Assembly (NCBI GenBank): GCA_963782025.1 | Contig: CAWAIB010000005.1 | Span: forward strand, 483,919 to 547,918 | Origin: an uncultured Solirubrobacterales bacterium | Lineage (GTDB): Bacteria > Actinomycetota > Thermoleophilia > Solirubrobacterales > Solirubrobacteraceae | Length of the DNA: 64,000 bases | Direction: 5' to 3' | Shown: piece after piece, positions 14,620 to 34,134 of the stretch | Position numbering within the stretch: position 1 is the stretch's first letter | Layout of the letters: every line of letters begins with the position of its first letter | Notes under the pieces: generated by a model | Database searches by the model: none | Told to the model about the DNA's origin: nothing | What the model saw: only the letters and a program-made list of their open reading frames with translations | Translations under genes and position numbers: made by a program

Positions 14620-15969
14620 TTGGGCGCGTATCTTGTGCGAATGGCTGCGGTGCCGGACTCGTCGACGTGGGTGCCCGAGACGCGGTATGCGCGCAATGGC
14701 GAGGTGCATATCGCCTACCAGGTCTTCGGCGAGGGCGAGGTGACCTTCGTCGGCCTGCCGGGGATCGTGTCGAACGTCGAGGTGTTGTGGGAGGACCCCG
14801 AGTCTCGGCGATGGCTGATGGAGCTCGCGTCGTTCACGCGGATGGTTCATTACGACAAGCGCGGCCAGGGGGTCTCAGATCGCGACTCGGGCGTTCCGAC
14901 TCTCGATGATCGGCTCGGGGATCTGACGGCGGTGCTGGATGCGGCCGGTGTGGATCGCGTCGCGCTGGGCGGGATCTCGGAGGGAGGTACGACGGCCGCG
15001 ATGTTCGCCGCCACATATCCCGAGCGCGTGAGTCACCTGCTGCTGTACGGCACGTTTGCGCATATCGATCCCGCTCTCGGCGACGCGGTGATGCCCGTTT
15101 GGGCCGAGAAATGGGGAACGCCGGAGACCTTCAGCGTTGAGGTGATCGCGCCGAGCAAGGCCGGCGATCCCGACTTCTTGCGTTGGATGAATCGCTATGA
15201 GCGTCAGAGCACGACCCCGGGAGGGCTGCTCGCGGCGTGGCGCTGGATCCGGGAGATGGACCTGCGCCCCGTCCTCGGCTCGATTCAGTGCCCGACGCTC
15301 GTGGTGCATCGCAGCGACGATCGCCTCGTGCCCGTGTCAGCGGGCCGCTATCTCGCCGAGCATATCCCCGGTGCGCGGATGGTGGAGCTGGACGGAGACA
15401 CCCACGCACCCCAGTGGGGTGACTTCGAGGTGATGGTGTCGTTGGCGGAGGAGTTCCTGACCGGGCATCGCTCGACCCCGAAGCGCAGTGAGCGGGTGCT
15501 CGCCACCGTGCTGTTCACCGACATCGTCGATTCGACTGCCCGCGCGGCGGCTCTCGGTGACAGGACGTGGCGGGAGGTGCTCGATCGTCACGACACGATC
15601 TCGCGCAGCACCGTCTCGGAATGGGACGGGCGCCTGGTGAAGGGGACCGGTGACGGCGTGCTCGCCACCTTCGACGCGCCGGCGCGCGGGCTTCGCTGCG
15701 CCGATGCGCTGCGCTGCACGCTGGCGGATGCGGGGATCGCGATCCGGGCGGGCGTGCACACGGGTGAAATCGAGCTTCGCGGCGAGGACGTTGCGGGGAT
15801 CGGGGTCCACATCGCCGCCCGCGTCGCGGCGCTCGCCGACTCTGGAGAGCTGCTCGCCTCCCGCACCGTCAAGGACCTGGTCGCCGGATCGGACTACACA
15901 TTCGCTAGTCGCGGGATACACAGCCTGAAGGGCGTCCCCGACGAGTGGGAGCTACTCGCGGTGACCTGA
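14620..15969 (+). CDS. alpha/beta hydrolase - class III adenylate/guanylate cyclase fusion
   Basis: N-half hydrolase (VTFVGLPGIVSN, GGISEGGTTA nucleophile elbow, LVVHRSDDRLVP). C-half cyclase (VLATVLFTDIVDST, KGTGDGVLATFD, RAGVHTGEIE, GIGVHIAARV). Same architecture as mycobacterial LipJ-type cyclases. Confidence 0.85.
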   Translation: MGAYLVRMAAVPDSSTWVPETRYARNGEVHIAYQVFGEGEVTFVGLPGIVSNVEVLWEDPESRRWLMELASFTRMVHYDKRGQGVSDRDSGVPTLDDRLGDLTAVLDAAGVDRVALGGISEGGTTAAMFAATYPERVSHLLLYGTFAHIDPALGDAVMPVWAEKWGTPETFSVEVIAPSKAGDPDFLRWMNRYERQSTTPGGLLAAWRWIREMDLRPVLGSIQCPTLVVHRSDDRLVPVSAGRYLAEHIPGARMVELDGDTHAPQWGDFEVMVSLAEEFLTGHRSTPKRSERVLATVLFTDIVDSTARAAALGDRTWREVLDRHDTISRSTVSEWDGRLVKGTGDGVLATFDAPARGLRCADALRCTLADAGIAIRAGVHTGEIELRGEDVAGIGVHIAARVAALADSGELLASRTVKDLVAGSDYTFASRGIHSLKGVPDEWELLAVT

Positions 15970-15978: not shown

Positions 15979-16126
15979 CTAGTCGGTGAGCCGGATCTCG
16001 TGGTCCTTGAGCTTGGTGAGCAGGGCGATGTTGTGTCGTCCCCAGGGAATTTGTGCAGCAGGCTGTTGCACAATTGATGTTCAACACCCTTGCAGGGCAA
16101 TTGTCCAACGGGCTGTTGGACAATTT
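15979..16126 (-). pseudogene. internal fragment of a YhcG/DUF1016-family (PD-(D/E)XK nuclease) gene
   Basis: Minus strand reads IVQQPAAQIPWGRHNIALLTKLKDHEIRLTD* (16074..15979). A second out-of-frame copy of the motif reads IVQQPVGQL (16124..16098). QQPxxQ(I/L)PWGHN is the characteristic DUF1016 N-domain string. No start codon and no downstream nuclease domain. Confidence 0.6.
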
Positions 16127-16140
16127 CCCCGCTGCCTCGA

Positions 16141-16272
16141 GCTCAACCAAGGCAAGCAATCCCGGGTCTTTCGTCTCCCGGCCAATAAGTCCGCGAAGCG
16201 GTATTGGCCGGGAGACGAAAGGCCCGGGATCTGCGTAGCCGGGGGACGAAAGACCCGGGATCTGCGACGGGC
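16141..16272. repeat. type-1 hairpin element (27-bp stem, GCGAAGC apex) plus one extra R-arm copy
   Basis: L-arm CCCGGGTCTTTCGTCTCCCGGCCAATA 16161-16187, R-arm 16202-16228 (one T:G position), second R-arm end GACGAAAGACCCGGGATCTGCG 16245-16266. Preceded by GCTCAACCAAGGCAAGCAAT. Confidence 0.9.
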
Positions 16273-18766: not shown

Positions 18767-19513
18767 TCAGCGCATGACGAGCTCGGAGTGCAACGCCAGC
18801 AGCTGCGGTCCCGGTGCGACTCCTAGGGCCTCGCGTAGCCGCAAGCGAAGCTCGTCGTACACGAGGAGCGCGGCCGGCCGCTCACCACGCGTGTCAAGCG
18901 CTCGCATCAGCAGCGCGGTCGCGCTCTCGCTCAGCGGCTCGGCGGCAACGAGCTCGCGCGCCGCCCTCTCGGCAGTCAGCAGCTCGGTTTCGCCGAGCTC
19001 GAGCGCGGCCGCGGCGAGCGTCGCCAGCGCGCGTGTGTATAAGGCGCCGAGCTCCCTGCGGCGGTCATCGACCCATGCGCCGTCGTGCCCGGTTAGGAAG
19101 CCACGGCGCGTGACATTCATCGTAATGTGGGAGGCGATCCAGGCACGCTCCCACTCCTGCCGAACAACCCCCGACTCAGCGTCGTGGATCGCCCGTGCGG
19201 CTACCTCCACGTCAACGCTCGCGCCGTCATCGAGCGTGAGACGCAGCGGCCCAACTGCCGGGAGCGAGTCGCGTCCGATCACCGAGCGGAGCTTGGAGAG
19301 CAGAGCACGCATTGCCTGAGCGGACGCCGGCGGACGCTGTTCTCCCCAGATCGCCGTCGCGAGCTCCTCCCGCAGCGCGGCGCGATCACGGTTACAGACG
19401 AGCCACGCGAAAGCGATCCGGCCCTGCGCTCCAGGTAGCTGACCCGCCAGCTCAGCTCCTGCGGATCTCACGAGAAGGCGTCCACACAGCTGCACGACCA
19501 CATCAGCGAACAT
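18767..19513 (-). CDS. SARP-family transcriptional regulator (OmpR-type wHTH + BTAD)
   Basis: VVVQLCGRLLVRSAG, RIAFAWLVCNRDRAALREELATAIWG, and BTAD string EPLSESATALLMRALDTRGERPAALLVYDELRLRLREALGVAPGPQL. The track start 19618 overlaps a convincing opposite-strand DUF1059 ORF. I used Met at 19513, which is uncertain. Confidence 0.75.
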   Translation of the reverse strand: MFADVVVQLCGRLLVRSAGAELAGQLPGAQGRIAFAWLVCNRDRAALREELATAIWGEQRPPASAQAMRALLSKLRSVIGRDSLPAVGPLRLTLDDGASVDVEVAARAIHDAESGVVRQEWERAWIASHITMNVTRRGFLTGHDGAWVDDRRRELGALYTRALATLAAAALELGETELLTAERAARELVAAEPLSESATALLMRALDTRGERPAALLVYDELRLRLREALGVAPGPQLLALHSELVMR

Positions 19514-19519
19514 ACCGAC

Positions 19520-19678
19520 ATGGCAAAGCGAATCGTTTGTGAGTGCGGCTACATCATTCGGGGTGAGGACGACGAGCAGGTCGTGGAGCTCGGACGCGAG
19601 CACATGCAGGCCAACCATCCCACGATCGCGGCGGTGATCACCGCCGCGGAGTTGCTGGAGATGGCCGAGGAGGAATGA
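19520..19678 (+). CDS. DUF1059-family small protein
   Basis: 52-aa ORF below the track cutoff: MAKRIVCECGYIIRGEDDEQVVELGREHMQANHPTIAAVITAAELLEMAEEE*. The CxCG start and the helical tail are typical of DUF1059. Confidence 0.7.
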   Translation: MAKRIVCECGYIIRGEDDEQVVELGREHMQANHPTIAAVITAAELLEMAEEE

Positions 19679-19767
19679 GACCTGCGGGCGCAGGTTCTCC
19701 GTCCAAGTTTCACAGCGGGGCCGCCGGCCCGGTGGGTCCTGCCCGGGCCGGCGGCGATCCGCGATCG

Positions 19768-20958
19768 TCAGTCGACGGCGATGCCCGAGGCGACCGCGCC
19801 CGCGGGCAGCGGCGTGGGCGAGCTCGGAAGCTCGGTGAGGCTGCCGCCGTTGACCGCGAACGACGCGATGACATCGGCCTTGGAGCCGTTCACCAGCAGC
19901 GTCCTGCCGTCGGGAGACAGGCGCGCGTCAACGGCGCCCGCGCCGGCCGAGCCGAACGGCGTGCTTCCGATCAACACCAGCGAGCCGCCGGGGGTGATCG
20001 CGTAGCTGGAGATCTCTCCCGAGCCGGTGTTCACGGTGAACAGGAACTGCCCGTCGTGGCTGATCTCCACCCAGCAGGGTGCGGTCTGCAGATCGGCGAA
20101 CGGGGATGTGCCGATCGAGGTTAGTTCGCCGGAGAGGCTCACGTTGAAGGCCGAGACCGTCCCGTTGCCTTCGCCGCCGTGGGCGTTGCTGACGAACAGC
20201 TGCGAGGGATTCGTCGGACGGAACTCCGAGCCGAACGGTCCCGGTCCCTGGGCCGCGAAGGGCGAGCCTGGAGCGGCGACGAGGCGTCCGTCGAAGCGAA
20301 CGTGGAAGCTCGCGATCGTCGAGGTGTTGACGAGCGGGACGATCAGCCGCTGACCGGTGGGATCAAACAGTACGTCGTCGGGACCCGAGCCGGCTCCCAG
20401 CGCGACGGTCGAGCTCGGCAACGGGTACAGAACACCCCAGGGGGCCAGGTAGAAGCCCGTGACGTTCGGTTCGTTGGCGCCGGCGTTGGCGACGTAGACG
20501 AGGTTGCCCGAGACCGCGATGCTGACGGGGTCGCTGCCACCGGAGGACACGGGCGCGCCAACCGGCTGCGGAACGCCGCCGAAGCCGAGTCCCAAGACCG
20601 AGACCTGGTTGCTTGCGGCGTCGACCGCGAGCAGGTAGCGCCCGTCGCTGGAAAGCTGGATCGCGCCCTGCGAGGCCAACCCGGCGCCGGTGCCGGCGCC
20701 ACCGGTCGCGAAGGGGGAGCCGGGGATCGGGGTCAGCGAGCCGTCGGCGTGCCGGTCAAAACCGGCGATTGTGTTCGACACTGCGGTGTTGTCGTTGACA
20801 TAGGCGTGGCCGACGACGAAGGATTCGCGTTCGGGTTGGTGTTCGCGTTCGTGGTGGTGGTGGCCGAAGAAGAAGGGCGCCGCAGAGGCACTGGCGGATG
20901 AGACGGTCGCTCCTGCGAGGGTTAGTGCGAGCAGGATGACGAGGCGAGGTGGCTTCAT
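19768..20958 (-). CDS. secreted 7-bladed beta-propeller (lactonase-like) protein
   Basis: Signal peptide MKPPRLVILLALTLAGATVSSASASA, His-rich stretch FFFGHHHHEREH, repeated SSDGRYLLAVDAASNQVSV / SHDGQFLFTVNTGSGEISSY / SPDGRTLLVNGS blades. Confidence 0.75.
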   Translation of the reverse strand: MKPPRLVILLALTLAGATVSSASASAAPFFFGHHHHEREHQPERESFVVGHAYVNDNTAVSNTIAGFDRHADGSLTPIPGSPFATGGAGTGAGLASQGAIQLSSDGRYLLAVDAASNQVSVLGLGFGGVPQPVGAPVSSGGSDPVSIAVSGNLVYVANAGANEPNVTGFYLAPWGVLYPLPSSTVALGAGSGPDDVLFDPTGQRLIVPLVNTSTIASFHVRFDGRLVAAPGSPFAAQGPGPFGSEFRPTNPSQLFVSNAHGGEGNGTVSAFNVSLSGELTSIGTSPFADLQTAPCWVEISHDGQFLFTVNTGSGEISSYAITPGGSLVLIGSTPFGSAGAGAVDARLSPDGRTLLVNGSKADVIASFAVNGGSLTELPSSPTPLPAGAVASGIAVD

Positions 20959-22951: not shown

Positions 22952-24403
22952 TCATCCGTGTGCCGCTGCTCGTGCTGTCCTCTCCGCTGTAGGAGCACGC
23001 TCGGTTAGGCGTACGCGTAGCCCACTGGGGGCCATTGTGAACTGGAAGGTCTCTGTGACGGGGCCGGCGCTTTCGTCGAGCTCGATGTGGAAGTTGCGGG
23101 CGATCGTCGCCATCGCGGCCTTGGACTCCAGGAACGCGAGGTTGCGCCCCGGGCAGAACCGGGGGCCCGCGCCGAACGCGAGAAACGTCTTCTGGTCGGG
23201 CGTCTCGTCGCCGGGACCGTCCTCGCTGAGCCAGCGATCGGGGTCGAACTCCTCCGCGCGGCTTACCGAGCGCAGGCCGATCAGGCGGGTGGGCGCGAAC
23301 AGGCGCGTGCCGGCGGGAATCTGCGTGTCGGCGATGACGGTGTCCTCGATCGGCTCGACGCCGAGGATCGGAGCGACGGGCTTCAGGCGCATCGACTCGC
23401 GCAGCACCGCCTCGCCATAGCGCAGCTCGGCGATCGTGTCGTACCTGCCAGGGAAACGTTCGTCGCCAAGGACCTCGTCGGCCTCCTGCGCCCAGCGCCG
23501 CTGGATCTCGGGGTGACGGGCAAGCAGCCACAGCGTCCACGCCATCGTGTGCGCGGTCGTGTCCTCGCCGGCGAGCAGCAGCGTGTATACGTTGCCGAGA
23601 ATTTCTGCGTCCGTGAACGTTTTGTCCTGTTCCTGGGCGGCGATCATGCTCTCGAGGAAGTTCTCAGGCTCCTCGCGCAGCTCTGGTCTCGCGGCCATCC
23701 GTGCGCGCGCCTGCGCTATGAACGTGTCGATCTCAGCCCTGATCGCGAGCACCGCACGGTCGGCGGCGCGGTCGACTGGGAGTCGCAACCAGCGCCAGTA
23801 GGGGACCGGGATCGTGATCCGCCTGCCCGTGATGTCGAAGATCCGCTGGATGTTGCGCTGCAGCTCGCCGTCGCCGTGTTCGAGCGTGTTCAGGTCGTGC
23901 CCGAACGCGAGCGCGGAGGTCACATCGACCGTGAACGAGGTCAGGTCGCCGCCGATCTCACGGCTCCCACCCTCGCTCACCGCCCGCTCGAGCCGCCCGC
24001 AAAGGCGCTCGGTGCACGTGCGCACGATCTCGTAGTAGCGCTCGAGGTGGTTCGAGTTCAGCGCGGTGACCGCGAGGCGGCGCTGCTGGCGCCACTCCGC
24101 GCCCTCGGCGGCGAACACACCGATCGTGCCGATCAATTCCCTCGTCACGCTCTCGATCCCGCGCGTACGCCTGAACCGGTCCGGACGCTCGCGCAACGCC
24201 CGATTGATCGCATCCGCGTCTGCGATCACGACGAAGCGACCGCTCCCGAGCTTGAACGTATAGATCGGCCCGTAGCGTTCACACCAATCCTCGAGTACCT
24301 GATGAAGCGCGGCTACACGCATGCGGTGCGCGACGCCGATCAGCGGCAGCCCTCGCGGCCCGGGAAGATCACGAATCGAGCGCGAAGCAGCAGCCGAGCT
24401 CAT
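22952..24403 (-). CDS. cytochrome P450
   Basis: Heme loop FGAGPRFCPGRNLA, ExxR EAVLRESMRL, I-helix LLLAGEDTTAH, N-terminal LPGPRGLPLIG. The track ORF extends to 25333 by reading through the repeat array. ATG 24403 (MSSAAASRSIRDLPGP) was chosen. Confidence 0.88.
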   Translation of the reverse strand: MSSAAASRSIRDLPGPRGLPLIGVAHRMRVAALHQVLEDWCERYGPIYTFKLGSGRFVVIADADAINRALRERPDRFRRTRGIESVTRELIGTIGVFAAEGAEWRQQRRLAVTALNSNHLERYYEIVRTCTERLCGRLERAVSEGGSREIGGDLTSFTVDVTSALAFGHDLNTLEHGDGELQRNIQRIFDITGRRITIPVPYWRWLRLPVDRAADRAVLAIRAEIDTFIAQARARMAARPELREEPENFLESMIAAQEQDKTFTDAEILGNVYTLLLAGEDTTAHTMAWTLWLLARHPEIQRRWAQEADEVLGDERFPGRYDTIAELRYGEAVLRESMRLKPVAPILGVEPIEDTVIADTQIPAGTRLFAPTRLIGLRSVSRAEEFDPDRWLSEDGPGDETPDQKTFLAFGAGPRFCPGRNLAFLESKAAMATIARNFHIELDESAGPVTETFQFTMAPSGLRVRLTERAPTAERTARAAAHG

Positions 24404-24689
24404 CGAAGGAAACCTACTACATGAGGATTGCGCTACAGGGGCCACATCGTCGAACCACGCGGCAGGCGGTGCAGGAGTCGAGATCGCCCTCGAACTGTAC
24501 TTCTCGATGTGTGGTGCTGGATATAGGCCCACTTGCGCTCGGTGAGCTCGACCTTGCGCCCTTGCGGTGAGAGAGTGTTCGAGTGTTCGCGATGACATGG
24601 GTGTCGTCAGTCCGACGTGCGGGTGGAGGACCAGGCATCGAACATATGGCCCATAGTCCCCGGACGGAATTCGGAACGATTCGTGTGGC

Positions 24690-25030
24690 TCAACCAAGGC
24701 AAGCAATCCCGGGTCTTTCGTCTCCCGGCCAATAGGTCCGCGAAGCGGTATTGGCCGGGAGACGAAAGACCCGGGATCTGCGACGGGGACAAGACCCGGG
24801 ATCTGCGACGGGGACAAGACCCGGGATCTGCGACGGGGACAAGACCCGGGATCTGCGACGGGGACAAGACCCGGGATCTGCGACGGGGACAAGACCCGGG
24901 ATCTGCGACGGGGACAAGACCCGGGATCTGCGACGGGGAGGAAGGTCCGGGATCTGCGACGGCAGCGAAGCCGGTATTGGACGGGGACGAAAGACCCGGG
25001 ATCTGCGAAGGGGACGAAGCCGGTATTTTG
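24690..25030. repeat. type-1 hairpin element with the largest arm-reiteration array (six perfect 25-bp units plus variants)
   Basis: L-arm 24708-24734, apex GGTCCGCGAAGCGG, R-arm 24749-24775 (perfect 27-bp stem). Units CGACGGGGACAAGACCCGGGATCTG start at 24781, 24806, 24831, 24856, 24881 and 24906. Degenerate units run to 25030. Confidence 0.95.
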
Positions 25031-25064
25031 TCGTGTGGGAGGCCCCGGGACGAAAGGTATATGG

Positions 25065-28000
25065 ATGGGTGATGACGTGTTGGGCATCAGCCTCCTCGGG
25101 GCTTTCTCGATCACCGTGGGGGGCCATGTCGTCCCCGACGACGCCTGGCGGCTGCGCAAGGCGAAGACCCTGATCAAGCTGCTCGCGCTTGCGCCCGGAT
25201 GTCGCCTGCACGCCGATCGGGCGATCGAGCTGTTGTGGGCGGGGCGCGAGGAGGCCTCCGCTCGGAACAATCTGCACCAGGCGATCTTTGCGGCGCGACG
25301 GGCGCTCGACTCGGCCGGGCTCGAGGGCCGCAACCATCTCGAGCTGCGCGAGGATGTGATCGCCCTCTGCCCCGAGGATCCCGTGCGGATCGACGTAGTC
25401 GCCTTCGAGGAGGCCGCCGCGAGCGCGCGGGAGGGGCGCGACCCCGCCGCCTATCGGGACGCCCTCGATTCCTACGACGGCGAGCTGCTGCCCGAGGATC
25501 GCTACGAGGAGTGGACGGCATCGCGGCGCGACGCCGTCCACGAGCTTCGCCTCGCTCTGGGGATCGAGCTGGCCGAGCTGCAGGCGCCGGAGCACCCCGC
25601 CGCGGCGATCGACCGCCTGCGATCGGTGCTGGTCGACGCGCCGCTCCACGAGCCCGCCCATCGGGCGCTGATGCGCCTCTATGTGGAGGGCGGGCGCCGG
25701 CAGGAGGCGCTGGCCCAGTTCCAGGAGCTGAAGCGCGGTCTGCGGCGCGAGTTCGAGGACGAGCCCGACGAGGTGACCCGCCGCCTCTACCGGGAGATAC
25801 TCACGCGCGGCGCGGGAGAGGCGAAAGCGGACGGGGAGCCGGCCAGCCCACCCACGGCGGCCGCGGTGCGAGAGCCGGCCGAGAGCCCACCCACGGCGGC
25901 CGCGGTCTCCTCGCCGGCCGAGAACCCAGGCAACCCGAACAACCTCCCGAAGCAGCTGACGAGCTTCATCGGCCGTGAGCGCGAGCTGGCCGAGGCCGGC
26001 GCGCTCTTGCGCAGCTCGCGGCTGTTGACGTTGACCGGGGCTGGTGGCTGTGGCAAGACGAGGCTCGCTCTGGAGCTGGCCGGGCAGCGGGCCGGGGACT
26101 TCACCGACGGCGTCTGGCCGGTGGAGCTGGCCGCGCTTGGCGAGCCCGAGCTGCTGGGCCCCGCGGTCGCCCAGGCCCTGGACACACGGCTCGCCTCCGA
26201 CCGCGCTCCGGAGGTCGCGCTCGCCGGCCACATCGGTGATCGCCGGCAGCTGCTTCTGCTCGACAATTGCGAGCACCTGATCGAGCCGGTCGCCCACCTC
26301 GTCCAGGCGCTGCTCGGCCACTGCCCTCGACTGACCGTGCTGGCGACCAGCCGCGAGCCGCTCCGTATTCCCGGCGAGGTGACCTGGCGGGTCCCGTCGC
26401 TCTCGCTCCCCAGCCTGGCCGAGCTCTCCTCCTCGGGCGAGGCGATTGAAGCGGAGTCGGTGCGGCTCTTCGTCGTGCGCGCCGGCCACGCGGCGCCCGG
26501 CTTCGAGTTGGACACGGAGAACGCGGCCGCGATCTCGACCGTTTGCCACCGGCTCGACGGGATGCCGTTGGCGATCGAGCTCGCGGCGGCGCGGGTCGGC
26601 GCCCTCACCCCCGCGCAGATCGTCGAGCGCCTCGACGGCTCGCTCGAGTTGCTCTCGGGGGGGAGTCGCACGGCGATGACCCGGCAGCAGACGCTGCGGG
26701 CGACGCTCGCCTGGAGCTTTGATCTGCTCGATGGCGACGAGCAGATCCTTTTGCGGCGCCTCGCGGTGTTCGCCGGAAGCTTCGGCCTGGACGCGGCCGA
26801 GGACGTCTGCGCGGGGGATCCGCTCGAGCGCCAGGAGGCGGTCGCGCTCCTCGGCCGTCTGATCGACAAGTCGCTCGTCCACGTCGAGGAGGGCCCCGGC
26901 GATCGCCGCTACCGTCTGCTTGAGACCGTGCGGCAGTACGCCGCGGAGCGGCTGCAGGAGGCTGGTGAGCGCCATGCCTTCGAGCGCCGCCATTGCGATT
27001 GGTACGTTGAGCTCGCCGAGAGCGACCCGACGCCGGTCGGTGACCTCCCGACGAGGGACCGGCTGCGGCGGTTGGATCTGGAGCGCGACAATCTCCGCGC
27101 CGCTCTCGCCTCGGCCCTGGCCGACGATCCCCAACTCGCTCTGCGCCTGACCGTCGCCCTCTGGCGTTTCTGGCTGATGCGCGGCTATCTCGCCGAGGGG
27201 TATCGCTGGCTCGCCGCGTCGCTGGCGGCGGCGCCGGAGCACACCATGGATCGTGCCCGTGCCCTGCTCGCCGCCTGCCTTGTTGGCATGCGGCGCGGCG
27301 TCCCTCTGCACCTGCACGAGCTCGGCGCCGAAAGCGTTGCGATCTTCGGCGAGTTCGGCGACCACGCCGGGATGTTCGACGCGGTCGAGGTATTGGCGGC
27401 CTATCGCGTGATCGTCAGCGGCCCGGCGGACATCGAGGCGCTGCTCGGCGAGCACGAGACGCTTCAGGTGGACGATCTCCCCGTGGCCCGGCCGCCGGCG
27501 TGGGCGGCGCACACGCGCGCCATCGCGGCCTGGTTTCGCCGTGAATATCCGCAGGCGCGCCGGCAGTTCGAGCTCGCGCTGAAGCGGGCCGGAGAGCTCC
27601 TCGCCGATGAGCGCCCGGCACTGTGGCCGCTGAGCTACGCGGTGTTCTCGGTCGAGGCCGAGAACGGCTACCCATTGCTGCTGCAGGAGGACACGGCGAT
27701 CGTCGGTCGCCGGGTCGGTGGCGAAGCGGCGGTTGCGTACATCCTGGGCAACCTCGCCGTCGTCGATCGGGTGCAGGGCGCCTTTGACCGGGCGGGTGAG
27801 TTGATCGAGGAGAGCCTCGCGCGCTTCCAGGCACTCGCCGACGTGCAGGGGGAAGCCTACGCGCTGGGCGCGCTCGGCAACCTCGCCCGCTCCAGTGGCG
27901 ACTTCGAGCGCGGCCGGGAGCTGCTCGGCCGCAGCCTCGCTCGCCGGCGGGAGGTCGGCGACCGGCGCGGCATCGGGATCACGCTTGGGTGCCTGGCGGT

Positions 28001-28394
28001 GCTGGACGCTCGCTCAGGCGATCAGGCAGGCGCCCGGGCCGCCGCTGAGCAGAGCCGTGACTGGTTCGCTGAGAACGACGACATGATCGGCCTCAGCGCC
28101 GCCGAGCTCTGCCTGGCGAACGTGGCGCTGTTCGCCGGCGATCGGGTGGGGGCGCGTGCGCATCTAAAGGACGCGGCCTCGGTGCTCGGGGGTATCCAGT
28201 CGACCCCCCAGAAGGGTTGGGTATTGGCCGTGCTCGCCGCGATGTCCGCCGAGGACGGCGAACCGGCGACGGCTCGCCGCTGGCTCGACCGGGCGATCTC
28301 CCAATTCGAGTTGGTGGGCGGCGACGCCGGCATCGCCTACTGCCGTGAGGTGGAGCGCGGGCCGGGTGTCGCAGCAAGCGCGATCGCCGATTAA
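25065..28394 (+). CDS. SARP/BTAD - NB-ARC/AAA ATPase - TPR regulator (AfsR-like)
   Basis: LGISLLGAFSITVGG and DAPLHEPAHRALMRLYVEGGRRQEALAQFQELKRGLRREFEDEP (BTAD). Walker A LTGAGGCGKTRLALE, Walker B LLLLDNCEHL. TPR-like repeats (GNLAVVDRVQGAFDRA, GALGNLARSSGDFERG). GAAAGG 7 nt upstream of ATG 25065. Confidence 0.88.
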   Translation: MGDDVLGISLLGAFSITVGGHVVPDDAWRLRKAKTLIKLLALAPGCRLHADRAIELLWAGREEASARNNLHQAIFAARRALDSAGLEGRNHLELREDVIALCPEDPVRIDVVAFEEAAASAREGRDPAAYRDALDSYDGELLPEDRYEEWTASRRDAVHELRLALGIELAELQAPEHPAAAIDRLRSVLVDAPLHEPAHRALMRLYVEGGRRQEALAQFQELKRGLRREFEDEPDEVTRRLYREILTRGAGEAKADGEPASPPTAAAVREPAESPPTAAAVSSPAENPGNPNNLPKQLTSFIGRERELAEAGALLRSSRLLTLTGAGGCGKTRLALELAGQRAGDFTDGVWPVELAALGEPELLGPAVAQALDTRLASDRAPEVALAGHIGDRRQLLLLDNCEHLIEPVAHLVQALLGHCPRLTVLATSREPLRIPGEVTWRVPSLSLPSLAELSSSGEAIEAESVRLFVVRAGHAAPGFELDTENAAAISTVCHRLDGMPLAIELAAARVGALTPAQIVERLDGSLELLSGGSRTAMTRQQTLRATLAWSFDLLDGDEQILLRRLAVFAGSFGLDAAEDVCAGDPLERQEAVALLGRLIDKSLVHVEEGPGDRRYRLLETVRQYAAERLQEAGERHAFERRHCDWYVELAESDPTPVGDLPTRDRLRRLDLERDNLRAALASALADDPQLALRLTVALWRFWLMRGYLAEGYRWLAASLAAAPEHTMDRARALLAACLVGMRRGVPLHLHELGAESVAIFGEFGDHAGMFDAVEVLAAYRVIVSGPADIEALLGEHETLQVDDLPVARPPAWAAHTRAIAAWFRREYPQARRQFELALKRAGELLADERPALWPLSYAVFSVEAENGYPLLLQEDTAIVGRRVGGEAAVAYILGNLAVVDRVQGAFDRAGELIEESLARFQALADVQGEAYALGALGNLARSSGDFERGRELLGRSLARRREVGDRRGIGITLGCLAVLDARSGDQAGARAAAEQSRDWFAENDDMIGLSAAELCLANVALFAGDRVGARAHLKDAASVLGGIQSTPQKGWVLAVLAAMSAEDGEPATARRWLDRAISQFELVGGDAGIAYCREVERGPGVAASAIAD

Positions 28395-28511
28395 CCCAAC
28401 TTAGAGCGGCCATAAGACATTGCAAAGTCGTCGTTAAGAGGTGGACCGTAGCCTCGCTGAGTGTCGTTGAGGCGCGATGTCAGACAACCAAACTGAGGAG
28501 GAGGCCGGCGC

Positions 28512-29482
28512 ATGGCTACGCAAGGGGTGCTTGGGGCGGCGACGTTGAAGGAGTTCGAGGACGGGTTGCACGGAGAGCTGATCCGGCCCGGCGATGGCGT
28601 TTATGACGAGGCTCGTGCGATCTGGAACGGCGCCCATGACGCTCGCCCGGCGGTGATCGCCCGCTGCGCTGATTCCTCCGACGTGCGCCACGCGATCGGT
28701 TTCGCGCGCAGCGAGGGACTTGACGTCGCGGTGCGTGGCGGCAGCCACAGCATCCGGGCGACCGCGCCGAGGAGATCATGCGCTTCTACCGGGAGTTCAC
28801 GCGTGAGGTGCCGGATGAGCTGAGCACCCTGGTCAACCTGATCACCGGGCCACCCGCTCCGTTCATTCCTGAGGACTGGCACGGCAAGAAGCTGATCGCC
28901 CTCGTCGGCTGCTACTCCGGTGACCCCGAGGAGGGGATGAAGGTGATGCAGCCGCTCCGCGACCTGGGCGACGCGGTCGCGGACCTTGTCAGCCCGATGC
29001 CCTACGTGCAGATGGAGAGCCTGCTCGATGCGCTCTGGCCGAAGGGCACCCAGGCCTACATGAAGGCGGGCTACTTCCGCGAGCTCGACGATCACGCGAT
29101 CGAGACGATGGCCCGCTTCCATCAGAACGCGACCTCCCCGGCCTCGGAGATCCACATCCAGCAGTTCGGCGGCGCGATCGCCCGTGTCGGTGAGGAGGAG
29201 ACCGCCTGCGGGGAACGCCAGGCGCCGTTCGTGCTCAACGCGATCGCCGCCACCCATGAGCCGACCGGCCTGGAGACCCATATGGATTGGGCGCAGCGGC
29301 TCTATGCCGAGATCGAGCCGTCGCTGACCGGTGGCGCCTACATCAACTTCCTCTCCTCCGAGGGCGAGGATCGGGTCAAGGCGGCCTACGGGACCGAGAA
29401 GTTCGCCCGGTTGCGGGCGCTCAAGGACCGCTACGACCCCACCAACCTGTTCCACCTGAACCAGAACATCCCACCATCATGA
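28512..29482 (+). pseudogene. BBE-type FAD-binding oxidase with 427-nt internal deletion (copy of 51088..52485)
   Basis: Nearly identical to 51088..52485 at both ends. The junction near 28751-28757 (CACAGCAT/CCGGGCGACC) removes the equivalent of about 51330-51756 and shifts the frame. The track shows two ORFs, 28512..28823 and 28778..29482. Confidence 0.9.
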
Positions 29483-29547
29483 TCATGGCGGTGAGGGTCC
29501 GCACCAAGCCACGTCTGGTGCGTCTACTGCTCGGAGTGCCCATTCCG

Positions 29548-29937
29548 TCACCGTTTTGCCGCGAGGTCGGCATAATGGCCCCACGGCAATGTTGCAGCAG
29601 GCTGCTGCAACATTGCCTCAGATGTCTCGCACATGCTCCATGCGCGCGCGAACTCGCGCATGTATCGAAGGTTACGTAGCGAGAAGCCGGTGATATCGGG
29701 CAGCTCGCGCCGAAGATCAACCGCCAGCCTGTCTACAATCTTGGCGCCCCATCCCTCACGCCGCTCGCGTTCGAGGATCTCGTGCCCGATTTCCCAGTAG
29801 AGCTGGATCAGCTCGCTGTTGACCGCGAGCACGGCACGAGTCCGGGCAGCCCCGATCCGGGCCTTGATCTCGGCCAGGAACTGCGGGTAGGCGGCCGGCA
29901 GCTCGTCGGCGCGACTTGTGGGTGGCACACTGGGCAT
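29548..29937 (-). pseudogene. truncated yhcG/DUF1016-family gene (N-terminal domain only)
   Basis: MPSVPPTSRADELPAAYPQFLAEIKARIGAARTRAVLAVNSELIQLYWEIGHEILERE...GFSLRNLRYMREFARAW...LQQPAATLPWGH, then unrelated sequence and a stop. The PD-(D/E)XK C-domain is absent. The ATG abuts the SOS box. Confidence 0.75.
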
Positions 29938-29951
29938 CGAACATATGTTCC
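29938..29951. promoter_or_regulatory. LexA/SOS-box-like operator (CGAACATATGTTCC)
   Basis: 13/14 match to the palindrome CGAACATATGTTCG. Lies directly 5' of the yhcG-like ATG on the minus strand. Confidence 0.6.
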
Positions 29952-29984
29952 CATCGTCTGCGGACGGCATCCGGAGCTACTCGT

Positions 29985-30133
29985 CTGAGCTCAACCCAGG
30001 CAAGCAGTCCCGGGTCTTTCGTCTCCCGGCCAATAGGTCCGCGAAGCGGTATTGGCCAGGAGACGAAAGGCCCGGGATCTGCGATCGCGGCGAGCCCGGT
30101 ATTGGACGGGGGACGAAGGCCCGGGATCTGCGC
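29985..30133. repeat. type-1 hairpin element plus one partial apex+R-arm copy
   Basis: L-arm 30009-30035, R-arm 30050-30076 (two imperfect positions), second copy GCGAGCCCGGTATTGGACGGGGGACGAAGGCCCGGGATCTGCG 30089-30133. Confidence 0.9.
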
Positions 30134-30283
30134 TGGGCTGTTGTGAAGCTCAGTAACGGCGAGTATGAGGTCCACAACATCGGCGTCAACTGGCCACACC
30201 ACATCTTCGTCAACCAGGACTTCGAGGTGCTCGGCGCCGAGTAGGCGATTCCACAGCAACCAGCGACACATTTGCCCCAGTGA

Positions 30284-31300
30284 TTAGGTACCCACCCGCC
30301 CGGCCACAGAAACTTGGGGGGTGTGCGGGCCTGCGGTCATGCCGCCGCCACCTCGCGGAGCGCCGCGCCGCCGAGTGCCGGGCCGCGGATGCCGGCCACG
30401 GAATGCCGGGCCACGGAATGCCGGGCCACGCACCCCAGCCCCGTTGAGCACCTGGAGGACGTCTTCCGCGCATGCGACGGGGTGCGCCCCGTCCTGCAGC
30501 AGCCGGAGTATGCGGTCTCCGCCCGGGTCGGTGAGGCGGCTGGGCACAACCGCGATATCGCGCCCGAGCTCGGTGGCGATCTTCGTGGTGAGCGCCGCGT
30601 TGGTGAAGCCGCCCGCCTCGACGATCACGATCATGTCGGCAAGCGCGGCGATGATCCGCCGCGAGGCGGTGAAGCACCAGCGCTGGTGTTCGAAGAACCC
30701 GGGCGGGAACTCGGAGATCGCCGTGCCGTGGGCGAGGATCCGCTGGTGCAAAGGATCCTGCCGGGTGAGATGGGAGAGATCGGGCGAGCAGGCCATCACC
30801 GCGATCGTGGCACCGCCACCGGCCAGCGCCCCCTCGTGCGCGATCCCGTCGGGCCCCTCGTTGACGCTGCTTACAACAGTCACACCCGCGCGCGCGAGGT
30901 CCCGCGTGAGCGTCAACGTGATCTCCTCGGCGTACGGGGTCAGCCCGCGGCTGCCAACGATCGCGACCCTGGGATTGGCTGGGGAAAGCAGCTCGCGCAG
31001 ACGCTCAACACCGCAGGTCGCGTACAGCACGGCCGGCGCGTTGGGGAGCTGCCGCAGCGCCCGGGGATAGGCGGCGTCGTGCTGGCACAGCGCGGTCGGG
31101 ACGCTGTCGGTCGGAGCGGGCAGCTCCAGCCCGCGCGGGACCCCGGAAGGATCCTCGACCCCGGCAGCACGCAGCAGCCCCTCGTTCGGGAGGGCCAGCA
31201 CCGACAGCAGCCACTGCTCGCGCAACGGCGAGCGCCGAGCGAGCGCCGGAGCAGCCGCAGCCACAACCGCGGAACGTCGTAAGCAAAGAGAGCAAACCAT
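30284..31300 (-). CDS. dprA: DNA-processing protein DprA/Smf family
   Basis: Rossmann-type core RVAIVGSRGLTPYAEEITLTLTRDLARAGVTVVSS, GGATIAVMACSPD, ISEFPPG, RIIAALADMIVIVEAG. The usual GLARGID string is diverged (VNEGPDGIAH). In-frame 15-nt tandem duplication at 30391-30430 (RGPAF x2). Confidence 0.8.
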   Translation of the reverse strand: MVCSLCLRRSAVVAAAAPALARRSPLREQWLLSVLALPNEGLLRAAGVEDPSGVPRGLELPAPTDSVPTALCQHDAAYPRALRQLPNAPAVLYATCGVERLRELLSPANPRVAIVGSRGLTPYAEEITLTLTRDLARAGVTVVSSVNEGPDGIAHEGALAGGGATIAVMACSPDLSHLTRQDPLHQRILAHGTAISEFPPGFFEHQRWCFTASRRIIAALADMIVIVEAGGFTNAALTTKIATELGRDIAVVPSRLTDPGGDRILRLLQDGAHPVACAEDVLQVLNGAGVRGPAFRGPAFRGRHPRPGTRRRGAPRGGGGMTAGPHTPQVSVAGRVGT

Positions 31301-31454
31301 CGCGCCCAGAACGGTACGCGCGAGTTGTGACGGCAGAGTGGATTAGGTGCCCGCCCACCCCGCGAGACTGTCGCGAGAAGTCCAGCTTGCGGATCTAATT
31401 ACCAGTAACGACTCGTGTGTCCGTGTCTGCCAACACGCCTTGGGACTTCTTTCG

Positions 31455-31625
31455 AGCTCAACCCAGGCAAGCAATCCCGGGTCTTTCGTCTCTCGGCCAA
31501 TAAGGCCGCGAAGCGGTATTGGCCGAGAGACGAAAGACCCGGGATTGCGTAGCCGGGGAGGGAAGACCCGGGATTGCGTAGCCGGGGAGGGAAGACCCGG
31601 GATTGCGTAGCCGGGGGACGAAGAG
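31455..31625. repeat. type-1 hairpin element with 29-bp-period arm reiteration
   Basis: L-arm 31476-31502, R-arm 31517-31543 (perfect, T:A variant). Units ATTGCGTAGCCGGGGAGGGAAGACCCGGG at 31544 and 31573, partial unit from 31602. Abuts the stop codon (31630) of the surface-protein gene. Confidence 0.92.
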
Positions 31626-31629
31626 CGTC

Positions 31630-34112
31630 TCAGTACTTCACGTGCGCTTCGGCTTCGGTGTAGGAGGTGCCTTCTTCGACCTTGAGCTTCAGGATGGCTT
31701 CGCTCGTGCCGGACGCGGGGCTCGTGTATTCGAAGACGCCTGAGGATTCGGCGAGGCCGGAGGCGGGGATCGCGAGGCCGGTAGCGTTCGTGAGCGTGCC
31801 TTCGCCGCTCGTCTTTTCGACCTTCGCCTTGTGGGCGCCGCCGAGGTTGGAGACGATGTTGCCGTATGCGTCGGTGACGCTGGCGTGGGCTTTGAATTTC
31901 TTGCTGGCGCCGATGCTGGTCGTGATGCAGGCAAAGGGGCAGGTGCCTGCTTCGAGTTTGCCGGCGCTCACCGTGGCGCCTGACCAGGCAAAGCGTTCCG
32001 GCGCGCCAGCCCTGATCGTGAACGAGCCCGACGTGCCTGTCACGGTGGCTGCCTTCTTTGACTTTGAGGGTCGTGTTCTGGGCGTCAAAGAGCTTGATCA
32101 GAGAGGCTGTGCCCACGCCTTCGGTGAAGGTGACCGTCGTGGCCGTGGTCGGGTATTCGGGCGCGAGGCCGCCGGGCGAGCTGGCGGGTTCGCTGAAGGC
32201 GAGTGTCCTTGAGCCCGCATAGCCGGCCGTGATGTTGCCCCATTCGTCGGTGGCGGTGAGCGTGATGTTGAAGGGGGCGCCCGCTTCCTGTTCTGAGGGT
32301 GTTGGCACGGTGAGCTTTTTGGTCGCGGCTGCTTTGACCGTGAAGGAGCCCGTGACGCCTTCGATCGTCCCTTCCGTCGCCTTCAGTGTCGTGTTTTGGG
32401 CGTCGTAGAGTTTGATCGTCGAGGCCGTGCCCACGCCGGAGGCGAAGGTGACGGTCGCCGGGTAGCTGGGCGGTTGTCCGCTGGGCGAGTTTGAGGGTCC
32501 GCTCCAGGTGAGCGTCTTTGCGCCCGTGTAGCTCTTGGCGGTGTTGCCCCATTCGTCGATCGCGGTGGCTTTCACGCTGACGGCGGTGGTGCCCGCTGTC
32601 GCTTCGGCCGGCGTCGTCATGCTGAAGCTGTTGGCGGCGGCCGCCTTGACGGTGAACGAGCCCGAGGCGCCTTCGATGCTGCCTTCTTTCGCTTTGAGCG
32701 TGGTGCTCGCGGCGTCGTAGAGCTTGAGCGAGGAGGCCGTGCCCACGCCCGCGGTGAAGGTGACCGTCGTCGCCGAGGCAGGGTATTCGGGCGCTGTGCT
32801 GATGGGCGAGGGCGAGCTCGCCGGCCCGCTCCAGGCGAGCGTCTTTGCGCCGGCGTAGCTGGTCGCGGTGTTGGAGTATTCGTCGAGGGCGGTGAGCGTC
32901 ACGTTGAAGGGGGCGCCCGCTTCCTGTTCGGACGGCGTTGGCACAGTGAATTTCTTGGCGACGGCCGGTTTGACGGTGAAGCTGCCCGACGTTCCTTCAA
33001 TTGCTGTCGTGCTTTCCTTTGCTTTCAGCGTCGTGGTCTGGGCGTCGTACAGCTTGGTCGAGGCAGCCGCGCCGGCGCCGGCGGTGAAGGTGACCGATGC
33101 CGTGTAGCTGGGCGCTTTTCCACTGGGCGAGTTGGCGGGTTCGCTCCAGGTGATCGTCTTTTTGCCCGCATAGCTCGTGGCGGTGTTGCCGTATTCGTCG
33201 GTGGCGGTGAGCGTCACGTTGAAGGGGGCGCCCGCTTCCTGTTCTGAGGGTGTCGGCACGCTGAGCTTCTTCGCCGCGGCCGCTTTGACCGTCACCGCCA
33301 GTCCGGTGGAGTTGTTGAGCGAGCCTTCCTTGACCTTGATGTGCGCGGCTTCGGCCTTGTACAGGGTCATCACGCCGTTGATCGCGCTCGACACCGTGGA
33401 TTTGCCTTCGCTGAACGTGATTTCGGTTGCTTCGCCAAAGCTCCTTTCGACGCCTGAATTGTCAACCACAAGCGGTTCTTCGCCGGCCGCTTCGTTGGCG
33501 CCTTCAAAGATCAGGGAATGCGAACCCGAGTAGGTCCCGACCGTGTCGCCCGACGCGTCCTTGGCGGTGATTGTGAGGTTGTCGGTCGCGCCGGCGGTGG
33601 GCGTGGTGTTTGCGGCTTCGAGCACGAGGTGGGTCGCCGGGCCATAGGCAACCGTCACCGATTTGGCTGTGCTTGTCGCCGTCCAAGTGCGCCAGACCGC
33701 GGTGACCGTGTATTCGTGGGCGCCGATCGACAAGCCCGTGTCGGTGCAGCTCGTGGCGGTCGAGGGAGAGCCCGAGCTCGGGCAGCCGCCGCCGGGGGAG
33801 CCGGCGTCGCGAGTCAGCGAAGTATTCGACCGTGCCGCCGCCGGGTGGCGTGACGGCCGACCAGGTGAGTTCGACCGTTTGGGCGCCCGGCGTGGCACTC
33901 GAGATCGCGGGCGAGGAGAGCGTCGCCAGGCTCGCCGACGCGTTTATTGTGCCGGCGCCCGACCAGTAACCAAAGACGCCCGCGACCAGCAGGCTCAGCG
34001 TCATCACGGTAGTGACCGCGATCCGCCGGGGCCTGCTGTGGCGGTTCGATCGCCTGGGCCTGCTGCGACGATTCGGTCTTCTCATGAGTGCGCGCTTGGT
34101 ATCGCGGGCCAC
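31630..34112 (-). pseudogene. large cell-surface protein with about six tandem Ig-like (Big_1-type) repeats, interrupted by two +1 frame disruptions
   Basis: Three track ORFs join into one protein: 33504..34112 (signal anchor IAVTTVMTLSLLVAGVFGYWSGAG, TVEYF), 31343..33898 (LTRDAGSPGGGCPSS..., then ~100-aa repeats VPTPSEQEAGAPFNVTLTATDEYGNTATSYAG...KLYDAQTTTLKAKE) and 31630..32088 (ATVTGTSGSFTIRAG...EAEAHVKY*). Frame breaks near 33815-33825 and 32047-32056. Confidence 0.75.
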
Positions 34113-34134
34113 TCGACCCGCGCTCTCTCGTCGT

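Follow-up and report, generated by a model that had tools for sequence, protein, structure and literature searches.

The 64-kb window analysed here, meaning the whole stretch of DNA under study, comes from an uncultured Solirubrobacterales bacterium and contains two divergent genes, a cytochrome P450 gene on the minus strand (22952-24403; Pfam E 8e-87, the exact protein being also found on ENA contig_85189) and a large SARP-type regulator gene on the plus strand (25065-28394), whose 1109-aa product carries BTAD, ATPase and TPR domains. Both assignments had been made by an earlier reading of the DNA letters (hereafter the sequence-only reading) and were borne out by Pfam. The regulator has more than 100 orthologues with 68-93% identity, and the named ones belong to the Solirubrobacteraceae/Solirubrobacterales. 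The 661-nt intergenic region (24404-25064) carries a composite repeat element of 343 nt at 24681-25023 (copy e24), the largest copy in the window of a dispersed family; all of its parts are given below on the plus strand. The element takes up about half of the intergenic region and not nearly all of it, as had been claimed, since the sequence to its left (24404-24680) is unique and forms the P450 upstream region.

The element opens with an asymmetric leader, TCGTGTGGCTCAACCAAGGCAAGCA (24681-24705), which sets its orientation and is conserved ahead of the hairpin in each of the 20 copies aligned. The hairpin has two 29-nt arms (24706-24734 and 24749-24777) that are 100% complementary and enclose a 14-nt loop, GGTCCGCGAAGCGG (24735-24748), with a small inner stem CCGC/GCGG. 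The perfect hairpin previously placed at 24708-24775 is the same one, although its true extent, 24706-24777, is two pairs longer at each end. Folding gave a z-score of -5.4 for DNA and of -4.7 for RNA, and across 19 distinct copies 97.8% of the stem cells are paired, one pair being UA in 12 copies and CG in seven with zero mismatches. The tail that follows reiterates the distal part of the right arm, AAGACCCGGGAT, together with its 3′ linker CTGCGAC. It begins with six identical 25-nt A units, CGACGGGGACAAGACCCGGGATCTG (24781-24930), which form the polymorphic minisatellite part, followed by a single 26-nt B unit, CGACGGGGAGGAAGGTCCGGGATCTG (24931-24956), both just as the sequence-only reading had described them, and by a 49-nt unit (24957-25005) that comprises half of the loop, a copy of the whole right arm, where the earlier description had only part of loop and arm, and the linker, and is 80% identical to the reference copy. 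The last unit, CGAAGGGGACGAAGCCGG (25006-25023), is truncated and forms the junction with ancestral DNA, with a GGTATT microhomology to the start of the right arm. Its start at 25006 agrees with the earlier delimitation, but the final seven bases then assigned to it, TATTTTG, belong to the ancestral promoter, so that the repeat proper ends 41 nt before the ATG at 25065 and not 35 nt.

Tandem Repeats Finder (TRF) describes the array as 10.0 copies of period 25 with a score of 382, and the 12-mer AAGACCCGGGAT, allowing at most one mismatch, is found 29 times in the window where 0.23 occurrences are expected, a count reached in none of 100 shuffles. Each A unit holds a 12-nt complement to the left arm, and alternative pairing of the units with that arm had been pointed out in the sequence-only reading; a role for such pairing found no support, since the full 29-bp hairpin dominates the predicted fold ensemble. 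A coding repeat was rejected because 25 nt is not divisible by three, and a CRISPR because there are no spacers. The array also contains 17 runs of three or more G on the plus strand, and thus may have some G-quadruplex potential.

On its right side the array directly abuts GTATTTTG, a sequence found some 41 nt before the start codon and conserved upstream of eight of nine orthologues, six of them without the element. The hexamer TATTTT (25024-25029) keeps its spacing to the start codon in seven of eight further orthologous loci, namely in the 93%-identity relative L002 and in six element-free ones, and is the sole TANNNT on the plus strand of the intergenic region. This conservation and uniqueness make it most likely that the core -10 is ancestral and lies at the edge of the array. 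The element is absent from the promoters of the orthologues L003, L004, L005, L016, L006, L010 and L007 (73-89% identity); GTATTTTG is retained in all of these but L005, and the ribosome-binding block in all of them. That block includes a Shine-Dalgarno-like GAAAGG seven nucleotides before the ATG (25052-25057), and its core, (G)AAAG(G/A), is found in nine of nine orthologues. A sigma-70 promoter and terminator consensus scan found nothing, and the putative promoter is placed at TATTTT on the strength of conservation and the TANNNT rule. The ancestral -10 has thus probably survived, the repeat having replaced the DNA upstream of it. In this respect the earlier proposal of a promoter within the repeats or past them would hold in part: the array would supply only the -35 position and the DNA further upstream. 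A copy arriving at this locus would have replaced the ancestral -35 and everything upstream of it, and would have left the -10, the 5′ leader, the ribosome-binding site and the open reading frame of the regulator ancestral and intact. The locus may therefore offer a clean case for how much upstream DNA such promoters need.

The window contains at least nine full copies of the family and one or two partial ones, all intergenic and in one orientation, at a density of about one per 6-7 kb. In the common layout a leader of 25 nt precedes a near-perfect 72-nt hairpin, and this in turn is followed by one to nine tail modules (25-31 or 49 nt), which are partial copies of the hairpin 3′ arm and its 3′ linker and have a consensus, GGGGAGGAAGRCCCGGGATCTGCG, common to different loci. 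The hairpin is flanked by ...GCAAGCA on its 5′ side and by CTGCG(A/C/T) on its 3′ side. When the copies are compared there is no conserved 3′ module after the terminal array, and the ends are asymmetric, with the leader on one side and the tail on the other. On the plus strand, e16 (16132-16270) has a leader, a hairpin and two tail units with a 31-nt period, e30 (29980-30135) a hairpin with one 49-nt unit, and e31 (31447-31620) a hairpin with three units of 29 nt. A partial copy at 34729-34775 retains the end of the right arm and the tail only, e35 (35820-35930) has a single tail, and e37 (37862-38041) combines a hairpin bearing small deletions with about three units of 27 nt. Two units are present in both e40 (40673-40802) and e58 (58245-58375), and one in e62 (62267-62375). 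The variation in unit number within the genome, noticed earlier, is therefore a property of the whole family; the one to three units reported for the other loci were seen, but with periods of 25-31 and 49 nt instead of 25-29. Full-length nhmmer matches fell on the plus strand only, with at least 12 copies in the same orientation whatever the direction of the flanking genes. Several copies have long flanks in common and have probably spread by segmental duplication. About 40 open reading frames of the window were scanned for transposase, Y1 and integrase domains, and none was found; neither the window nor the 8-10 kb flanks fetched from four strains revealed an integrase or any other recombinase.

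In order to see where else the family occurs, we compared it with several collections. No Rfam family matched anywhere in the window at the gathering threshold, and a permissive threshold applied to 24600-25100 gave only spurious miRNA-type hairpin matches far below threshold. An exact 30-mer was absent from 185,579 GTDB species representatives and from JGI metagenomes, while a 19-mer scan of GTDB genome contigs gave 22 single matches in unrelated taxa and nhmmer returned the seed only. Viral contigs held no match to the family, and a distant blastn comparison with PLSDB plasmids gave nothing beyond an irrelevant 31-nt match to flanking sequence in Rhodococcus. Among 84 loci totalling 730 kb, about 710 kb of it from relatives, copies were present in L001 and L002 only, and a further 52 kb of the relatives' loci had none. 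The family is restricted to one lineage. A literature search on repeats in Solirubrobacterales gave nothing relevant, and we found no described interspersed repeat family for this order; the family is previously undescribed. It documents a dense, lineage-restricted set of repeats in abundant, largely uncultured soil actinobacteria of the class Thermoleophilia.

The array is polymorphic between strains. Among five assemblies that are 99.4-99.6% identical, and reading the unit number from metagenome assemblies and not from clones, we found four alleles: A6-B, which occurs twice (the window and L001), A5-B (L117), A3-B (L118) and B3-A3-B (L116/L089), giving 6, 6, 5, 3 and 3 A units, with B amplified instead of A in the last of these. 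In their flanks, L116-L118 match the window at 99.4-99.5% identity, and strains with different arrays share a 100% identical regulator protein. A fifth allele, B′5, is found in L002, where five units of another variant were amplified and the 49-nt unit is missing. The unit number is thus not fixed, and the copy-number variation anticipated by the sequence-only reading is seen in silico. That reading had suggested expression control or slippage; slippage or unequal exchange would be the simplest cause, and the runs of 100%-identical units point to very recent amplification. The 49-nt unit and the truncated one, which together make up the 67 nt of the repeat nearest to the promoter, are invariant among the near-identical strains. 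The smaller tails of e16, e30, e31 and e58 were unchanged in every strain checked (the same e16 structure in L115, the same e58 in four other strains), and the longest tail is the most unstable; larger BOX arrays are likewise more variable (PMC3049150). These metagenome-assembled strains provide a natural example of minisatellite unit change on a timescale of less than 0.5% sequence divergence, and the array is a ready-made strain-typing marker for the population.

Differences between strains also involve whole segments, and the breakpoints of these indels fall at element ends. Where L086 has one copy, L085 has two copies and a 3-kb segment, with breakpoints a few nucleotides from the element ends, and in L086 e62 has been converted to another copy type, a 3-unit copy standing in its place. 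This suggests that the repeats structure the flexible genome of the lineage, with the copies possibly serving as portable homology for the exchange of strain-specific segments. The comparison with relatives, in which synteny is lost around the other copies, yielded no empty site that shows both boundaries; for e16, the upstream hydrolase/cyclase orthologues led to three relatives (90-93% identity) with different downstream genes and no readable boundary. Mobility of the element, as opposed to its spread by duplication and recombination, is therefore conjectural.

Taken together, the data are best explained, in our opinion with reasonable though far from complete confidence, by a REP/BOX-like selfish repeat whose tail at this locus has grown into a minisatellite beside an ancestral -10, a by-product and not a dedicated switch. 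The element at 24681-25023 would be one member of an interspersed DNA repeat family that is non-coding, high in copy number and specific to the lineage, and its tail units would be gained, lost and homogenised through slipped-strand mispairing during replication, unequal exchange, or both. Slippage or recombination as the mechanism, and the selfish spread and neutrality of the repeat, are inferred. The array itself would most likely be a by-product of repeat instability and would at most modulate transcription through altered DNA upstream of the core promoter. The uniform orientation of at least 12 copies is not predicted by a simple REP or MITE model.

A close parallel in organisation is the BOX element of Streptococcus pneumoniae (boxA-boxB(n)-boxC), which is likewise composite, dispersed and non-coding with a tandem short internal module, differs in module number between loci and strains, and can occupy promoter regions and influence neighbouring genes (PMC3049150). 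However, there is no sequence relation, the host here is an actinobacterium and the copies are uniformly oriented. In addition, the BOX array lies between two pairing terminal modules (boxA and boxC), whereas here it is at the 3′ end with no boxC-like module, and the repeated module is a partial copy of the 3′ arm of a single long perfect hairpin. REP/REPIN sequences and BIMEs, associated with RAYT Y1 transposases, are likewise high-copy, lineage-specific extragenic palindromes found mostly 3′ of genes. A REP, however, is an imperfect palindrome of 20-40 bp (PMC3733652) as compared to 72 nt with 29-bp perfect arms here, and carries an unpaired GTAG/CGTC tag at the end of its stem, whereas GTAG is found only 5 nt 3′ of the stem in two of nine window copies. 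REPINs and BIMEs also usually occur as inverted pairs, while the present copies are single and in the same orientation, and REPs are mobilised by a RAYT, of which none was seen among the open reading frames scanned in the 64-kb window. MIRU-VNTR loci of mycobacteria are dispersed intergenic minisatellites of an actinobacterial genome whose copy number differs from strain to strain, as is the case here, but their units are 40-100 bp long, typically within operons, and are not attached to a hairpin with a leader, and they have no sequence relation to this family. The situation at the regulator gene recalls MITEs, for instance the Correia elements of Neisseria, which are short and non-autonomous and whose insertion into promoter regions can supplant promoter elements or create new ones; MITEs have terminal inverted repeats and target-site duplications, whereas the ends here are asymmetric.

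Among the alternatives, we considered whether the array is a contingency promoter of the phase-variable or rheostat type, in which reversible gain and loss of 25-nt units would alter transcription of the regulator gene and the variability would be selected. A hypervariable tract directly upstream of the putative -10, four alleles among five near-identical strains and a regulator reading frame that is intact in all of them would fit such a device, and BOX modules have been reported to raise or lower the expression of downstream genes (PMC3049150). However, since the proximal 67 nt are invariant, the unit changes take place at least 68 nt upstream of the -10, and the -35/-10 geometry stays as it is. 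A period of 25-26 nt does not correspond to complete turns of the helix, these tails also differ in length at non-promoter loci (e.g. the convergent 3′ ends at e16 and e30), and the orthologues work without any array. A modulatory effect on expression of the regulator is possible, but a selected switch seems unlikely to us.

The uniform orientation raises a second idea, in which an integron-like cassette system would use the hairpins for site-specific recombination. They would be functionally analogous to attC, or to other hairpins that are recombined as single strands, but unrelated in sequence, and the enzyme would lie elsewhere in the genome. The hairpins would bound, in one direction, strain-variable modules rich in defence-type genes, and the tail repeats would be recombination scars at the 3′ arm. 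If so, the 3′-arm units, including the array upstream of the regulator, would be by-products of repeated strand exchange or resolution. In the 28-72 kb region, copies occur every 1.5-4 kb between modules of one to three genes, which include AbiE-like genes, ATPases, a PD-(D/E)XK nuclease and DprA, and the presence of the modules is strain-specific with breakpoints within a few nucleotides of element ends. The attC repeats of integrons, for instance those of Vibrio cholerae, are likewise unidirectional hairpin repeats between short strain-variable gene modules, and the leader motif GCTCAAC fits the integron inverse-core consensus RYYYAAC as it is known to us. However, there is no complementary R′ (GTTRRRY) 3′ of the hairpin or tail and the leader, unpaired in the folds, does not pair with the tail; an attC site was rejected on the lack of this partner. 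The stems are perfect, without the extrahelical bases of attC, the intervening genes do not show the usual co-orientation with the sites, and e16 and e24 sit among ordinary genes. That the window and the fetched flanks revealed no integrase also stands against such a system, no attI having been found there either, and to our knowledge integrons are essentially unknown in Actinobacteria. Finally, a near-identical direct repeat of about 100 nt suffices for RecA-dependent deletion and gene conversion, which would also explain e62 in L086. We therefore regard a dedicated cassette system as quite improbable, and keep to a repeat that offers homology for general recombination.

It is very unlikely that the element acts as RNA, whether as a terminator, as a small RNA or as an mRNA-stabilising hairpin of the kind proposed for REPs. 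The hairpin is very stable and seven of ten window copies lie just 3′ of minus-strand genes, on which strand the hairpin is followed by TGCTTGCCTTGGTT; REPs, too, are mostly found downstream of genes (PMC3733652). However, the orientation of the copies is independent of gene direction, with e58 lying after a plus-strand gene and e24 and e62 in divergent regions, and no annotated gene reads into the hairpin of the copy at 24681-25023. The non-Watson-Crick stem cells are C.A as often as G.U, on either strand, and there is no Rfam match. An intrinsic terminator (GC-rich stem and U-tract) was rejected, the scan giving no U-tract and no terminator-like site on either strand.

SARPs bind direct repeats overlapping the -35, and the regular direct repeats that adjoin the -10 of this SARP gene on its upstream side could in principle serve a DNA-binding protein, perhaps the regulator itself, as operators or iterons. 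This we consider highly improbable, since no orthologous promoter outside the narrow lineage has the repeats, the same units occur at about ten unrelated loci, and the period is 25-26 nt and not 11 or 22. An assembly or sequencing artefact, by mis-assembly of a palindrome or tandem repeat, might be suspected because the source is a metagenome assembly and the related contig L001 has homopolymer errors, but it is scarcely credible given that the same architecture was found in five independent ENA assemblies and one JGI contig, and that the alleles differ by whole units in an otherwise perfect sequence.

The element upstream of the SARP-type regulator gene (25065-28394, plus strand) spans 24681-25023 and is flanked by a cytochrome P450 gene on the minus strand (22952-24403) and, on the plus strand, by the gene for the 1109-aa BTAD/ATPase/TPR regulator protein. 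Its parts were found as the sequence-only reading had described them: a perfect inverted repeat with 29-nt arms (24706-24734 and 24749-24777, 100% complementary, 14-nt loop), a 3-nt linker (CTG) between the right arm and the first unit, six identical 25-nt units CGACGGGGACAAGACCCGGGATCTG (24781-24930), a 26-nt variant unit (24931-24956), a 49-nt unit repeating the whole right arm and half of the loop (24957-25005) and a truncated unit starting at 25006. The last bases of the latter, which had been extended to 25030, lie outside the repeat, and the array does not fill nearly all of the intergenic space, since the element accounts for 343 of the 661 intergenic bases. Tandem Repeats Finder reports a period of 25 with 10.0 copies (score 382), and 29 matches to the 12-mer AAGACCCGGGAT, with at most one mismatch, were counted in the window, where shuffles predict 0.23. 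Compared with shuffled sequences the region has a much stronger fold (z = -5.4 as DNA and -4.7 as RNA), the 29-bp hairpin being the only structure in the centroid.

A family HMM built from eight copies and run on the window found nine full-length copies, starting at approximately 16140, 24687, 29988, 31455, 35828, 37870, 40681, 58253 and 62275, plus partial copies, all of them intergenic according to a GC3-based gene map and Pfam annotation. The aligned copies have in common an asymmetric leader, (TCGAG)(TG)GCTCAACCAAGGCAAGCA, and a 72-nt hairpin, followed by the linker CTGCG(A/C) and one to nine tail modules, each 25-31 or 49 nt long. These modules consist of a shortened distal right arm plus the linker, and one type, GGGGAGGAAGRCCCGGGATCTGCG, is common and found at several loci; given this common structure across loci, the tail is part of the family architecture and undergoes local amplification. 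Of the stem cells in 19 distinct copies, 97.8% are paired; one stem position has UA in 12 copies and CG in the other 7, without any intermediate, and another shows UA, CG and UG as well as mismatches. Such changes represent a few events at most, and are thus weak evidence that the stem itself might be maintained. In the copy near 16 kb (e16), the left arm at 16166 has the sequence GGGTCTT in the window, where a T.G pair forms with right arm AAGGCCC, and GGGCCTT (C-G) in strain L115 (11526 region), a single transition restoring or breaking stem pairing between strains. Just 5' of this copy, a pair of short, perfect hairpins with the sequences TTGTGCAGCAGGCTGTTGCACAA and ATTGTCCAACGGGCTGTTGGACAAT (16060-16124) lies in a convergent intergenic region and may represent native terminators.

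We recovered the regulator locus from other ENA assemblies by exact-protein look-up. Writing A for the 25-nt unit, B for the 26-nt variant and L49 for the 49-nt unit, the window array is A6-B-L49-partial, as is that of ERZ25039465 (L001; 97.9% identical to the window, with many indels and noisier), and the arrays of ERZ25039493 (L117), ERZ25039484 (L118) and ERZ25039470 (L116, the same locus as L089) are A5-B-L49-partial, A3-B-L49-partial and B3-A3-B-L49-partial, respectively. Across about 6.7 kb, L116, L117 and L118 match the window at 99.4-99.5% identity; the figure for L089 is 99.36%. In the 93% relative, JGI contig L002, there are five B'-type units and no L49. The central idea of the sequence-only reading, that unit number is variable, is therefore supported by natural strain variation, in the form of whole-unit allele differences among related strains. 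The window and ERZ25039470 encode 100% identical regulator proteins even though their arrays differ. Since the alleles, known from assemblies, differ by whole units, are otherwise perfect in sequence and come from independent assemblies, an assembly artefact seems unlikely. Runs of identical units, and B blocks standing in place of A blocks, indicate recent amplification and homogenisation, probably caused by slipped-strand mispairing, unequal exchange, or both. No change was seen in any strain checked in the shorter tails of four other window copies (e16, e30, e31 and e58); the long tail is variable and the short ones constant, much as in pneumococcal BOX elements, where bigger boxB arrays are more variable (PMC3049150).

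In regards to the regulator promoter, seven orthologous loci (L003, L004, L005, L016, L006, L010 and L007; 73-89% protein identity) are without the element upstream. The motif GTATTTTG is kept roughly 41 nt upstream of the start codon in six of them, L005 being the exception, and a GAAAGG-type ribosome-binding block and the first codons are kept in all seven; farther upstream of the motif they diverge from each other. The repeat abuts this motif exactly in both the window and L002, GACGAAGCCG being directly followed by GTATTTTGTCG, and the junction and the right-arm start (GGTATTGG) have GGTATT in common, hinting at a junction or deletion mediated by microhomology. In actinobacteria the -10 box usually follows the pattern TANNNT, and TATTTT at 25024-25029 is its sole plus-strand occurrence in 24404-25064; a sigma-70 consensus scan found no promoter. 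Given the conservation among orthologues and the uniqueness of the hexamer on its strand, we place the candidate, presumably ancestral -10 of the regulator at 25024-25029. The repeat would now supply the -35 position and all DNA upstream of the predicted -10, so that the earlier proposal of a promoter either inside or beyond the repeats comes out as intermediate: the candidate -10 is just beyond the repeat and the -35 position within it, and the strict either/or does not hold. Unit-number changes occur at least 68 nt upstream of the hexamer and, as the L49 and partial units do not vary, would be unable to alter core-promoter spacing. For the promoter of the divergent P450 gene, the candidate -10 hexamers (24646-24641 and 24499-24494, minus strand) fall outside the element. 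If unit number did tune the regulator, the importance of the finding would be much greater. The evidence disfavours a purpose-built regulatory device and favours a selfish or neutral repeat with an unstable tail that by chance adjoins a conserved -10 box.

Orthologues of the regulator itself number more than 100, with identities of 68-93%, and those with a named NCBI entry are Solirubrobacteraceae or Solirubrobacterales MAGs. The hairpin repeat family has no Rfam match and was found neither in the viral contigs scanned nor in the plasmids searched; an exact 30-mer is absent from 185,579 species representatives and JGI metagenome contigs, and a 19-mer scan gave only 22 single matches in unrelated taxa, all seed-only by nhmmer. 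A scan of relatives' loci (84 loci, 730 kb) found copies only in L001, a member of the window's own population, and in L002, and a further 52 kb of relatives' DNA, reached via a second gene, held zero copies. With L002 (regulator 93% identical) as the sole carrier found beyond the window's own population, the family, dense as it is here (about one copy per 6-7 kb), is confined to a narrow clade. MIRU-VNTRs provide an actinobacterial minisatellite precedent. The closest functional analogue is the pneumococcal BOX, a dispersed composite repeat that can influence nearby genes and whose short-module tandem array differs from strain to strain (PMC3049150), and tandem unit reiteration is likewise seen in REP clusters, together with flanking DNA (PMC3733652). 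Size, terminal tag and pairing argue against REP/REPIN membership, and architecture and homology against BOX membership; no empty site that would bear on MITE status was found. We therefore file the repeat as a new family among small interspersed palindromic repeats that have a minisatellite component. Its distinctive traits are that the reiterated module is a copy of its own 3' arm and that the copies seen are strictly co-oriented.

All nine window copies and all extra copies 8-10 kb past the window end (four strains) have the same orientation, unlike the flanking genes: seven window copies are 3' of minus-strand genes, one is 3' of a plus-strand gene, and two, the regulator/P450 copy included, are in divergent regions. 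GC skew is positive throughout the window, so the leader-to-tail strand is probably leading-strand sequence. Long flanks are common to several copies, which were clearly propagated by segmental duplication, and as such copies are not independent the orientation bias is suggestive only. In the strain panel, strain-specific segments have breakpoints within a few nt of element ends; L085 has two copies 3 kb apart and L086 one copy joining the outer flanks, and at the position of the copy near 62 kb L086 has a copy of another type, carrying three units, between orthologous flanks, a pattern of gene conversion. Homologous recombination of the RecA type between near-identical direct repeats of about 100 nt is enough to account for these exchanges. 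Segment exchange at the hairpins by a site-specific recombination system is a less likely possibility, and were the hairpins substrates of such a dedicated system their importance would be much greater; the leader carries GCTCAAC, fitting the RYYYAAC of integron attC sites, but no GTTRRRY partner was found, the stem has no extrahelical bases and no integrase gene was seen in the window or the 8-10 kb flanks.

Strain-specific segments differ among assemblies 99.3-99.8% identical, at window 28,000-42,000 and at coordinates 1-10000 of L085-L088, which correspond to window ~62,000-64,000 plus 8 kb beyond. The variable region holds AbiEi/AbiEii-like genes, several AAA_14/DUF4143 and ATPase_2 genes, a DUF1016/YhcG nuclease and DprA, and looks like a flexible, defence-type island. 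A long conserved sequence, CTATGGCGTGCGAGTGGTGTGTCTGTGTGCCGGAAGAGCCTG...GTGTTTTGGCAGTTATGAAGGCC, follows several element copies (window 40803-40860 and 62372-62440; L085-L088), in some versions with an additional GC-rich hairpin GCAGCCGCGCGGGCTAACCGCCCGCGCGGCTGC, and leads into paralogous 491-aa ATPase_2/AAA_14 genes, which means that duplication of element-plus-gene modules has occurred. Another motif, CTCTTTGTGAATGGAGGATGTGTTTT(T)GG, is also dispersed (38052-38095, 58395-58420, 60317-60349 and ~35968-35995); it is often found immediately 3' of a hairpin-element tail and upstream of ATPase genes, with some copies tandemly duplicated. An IS66-family transposase gene, present in ERZ25039470 contig_23329 (L086 12324-13784), is absent from the matching place (window ~60065-60122) in the window and three other strains. 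A 64-nt tandem repeat (59973-60129; 2.5 copies, 98% identity) has related sequence after an element tail in strain L088, and a 315-nt tandem repeat (32048-33289; 3.9 copies, 72% identity) lies inside a large minus-strand ORF (~31343-33943) with weak matches to beta-sandwich adhesin-type repeats (CshA/LtfC-like). Relatives have a BBE/FAD-oxidase gene after the SARP gene. A ~420-nt deletion truncates this gene in the window (28497-29482), and in L089 (ERZ25039470, 6342-7863) it is near full length; its 3' part is 98% identical to a paralogue at 51073-52485 (compared region 50982-52502). Large signal-transduction regulators occur at an unusual density in the window (3987-8063, 14431-15969, 18767-19927, 25065-28394, 43470-46454 and 49234-50205), comprising three BTAD-containing proteins, one of them fused to a guanylate-cyclase domain and AAA_16 ATPase, as well as a LuxR-AAA_16 protein and cyclase-domain fusions.
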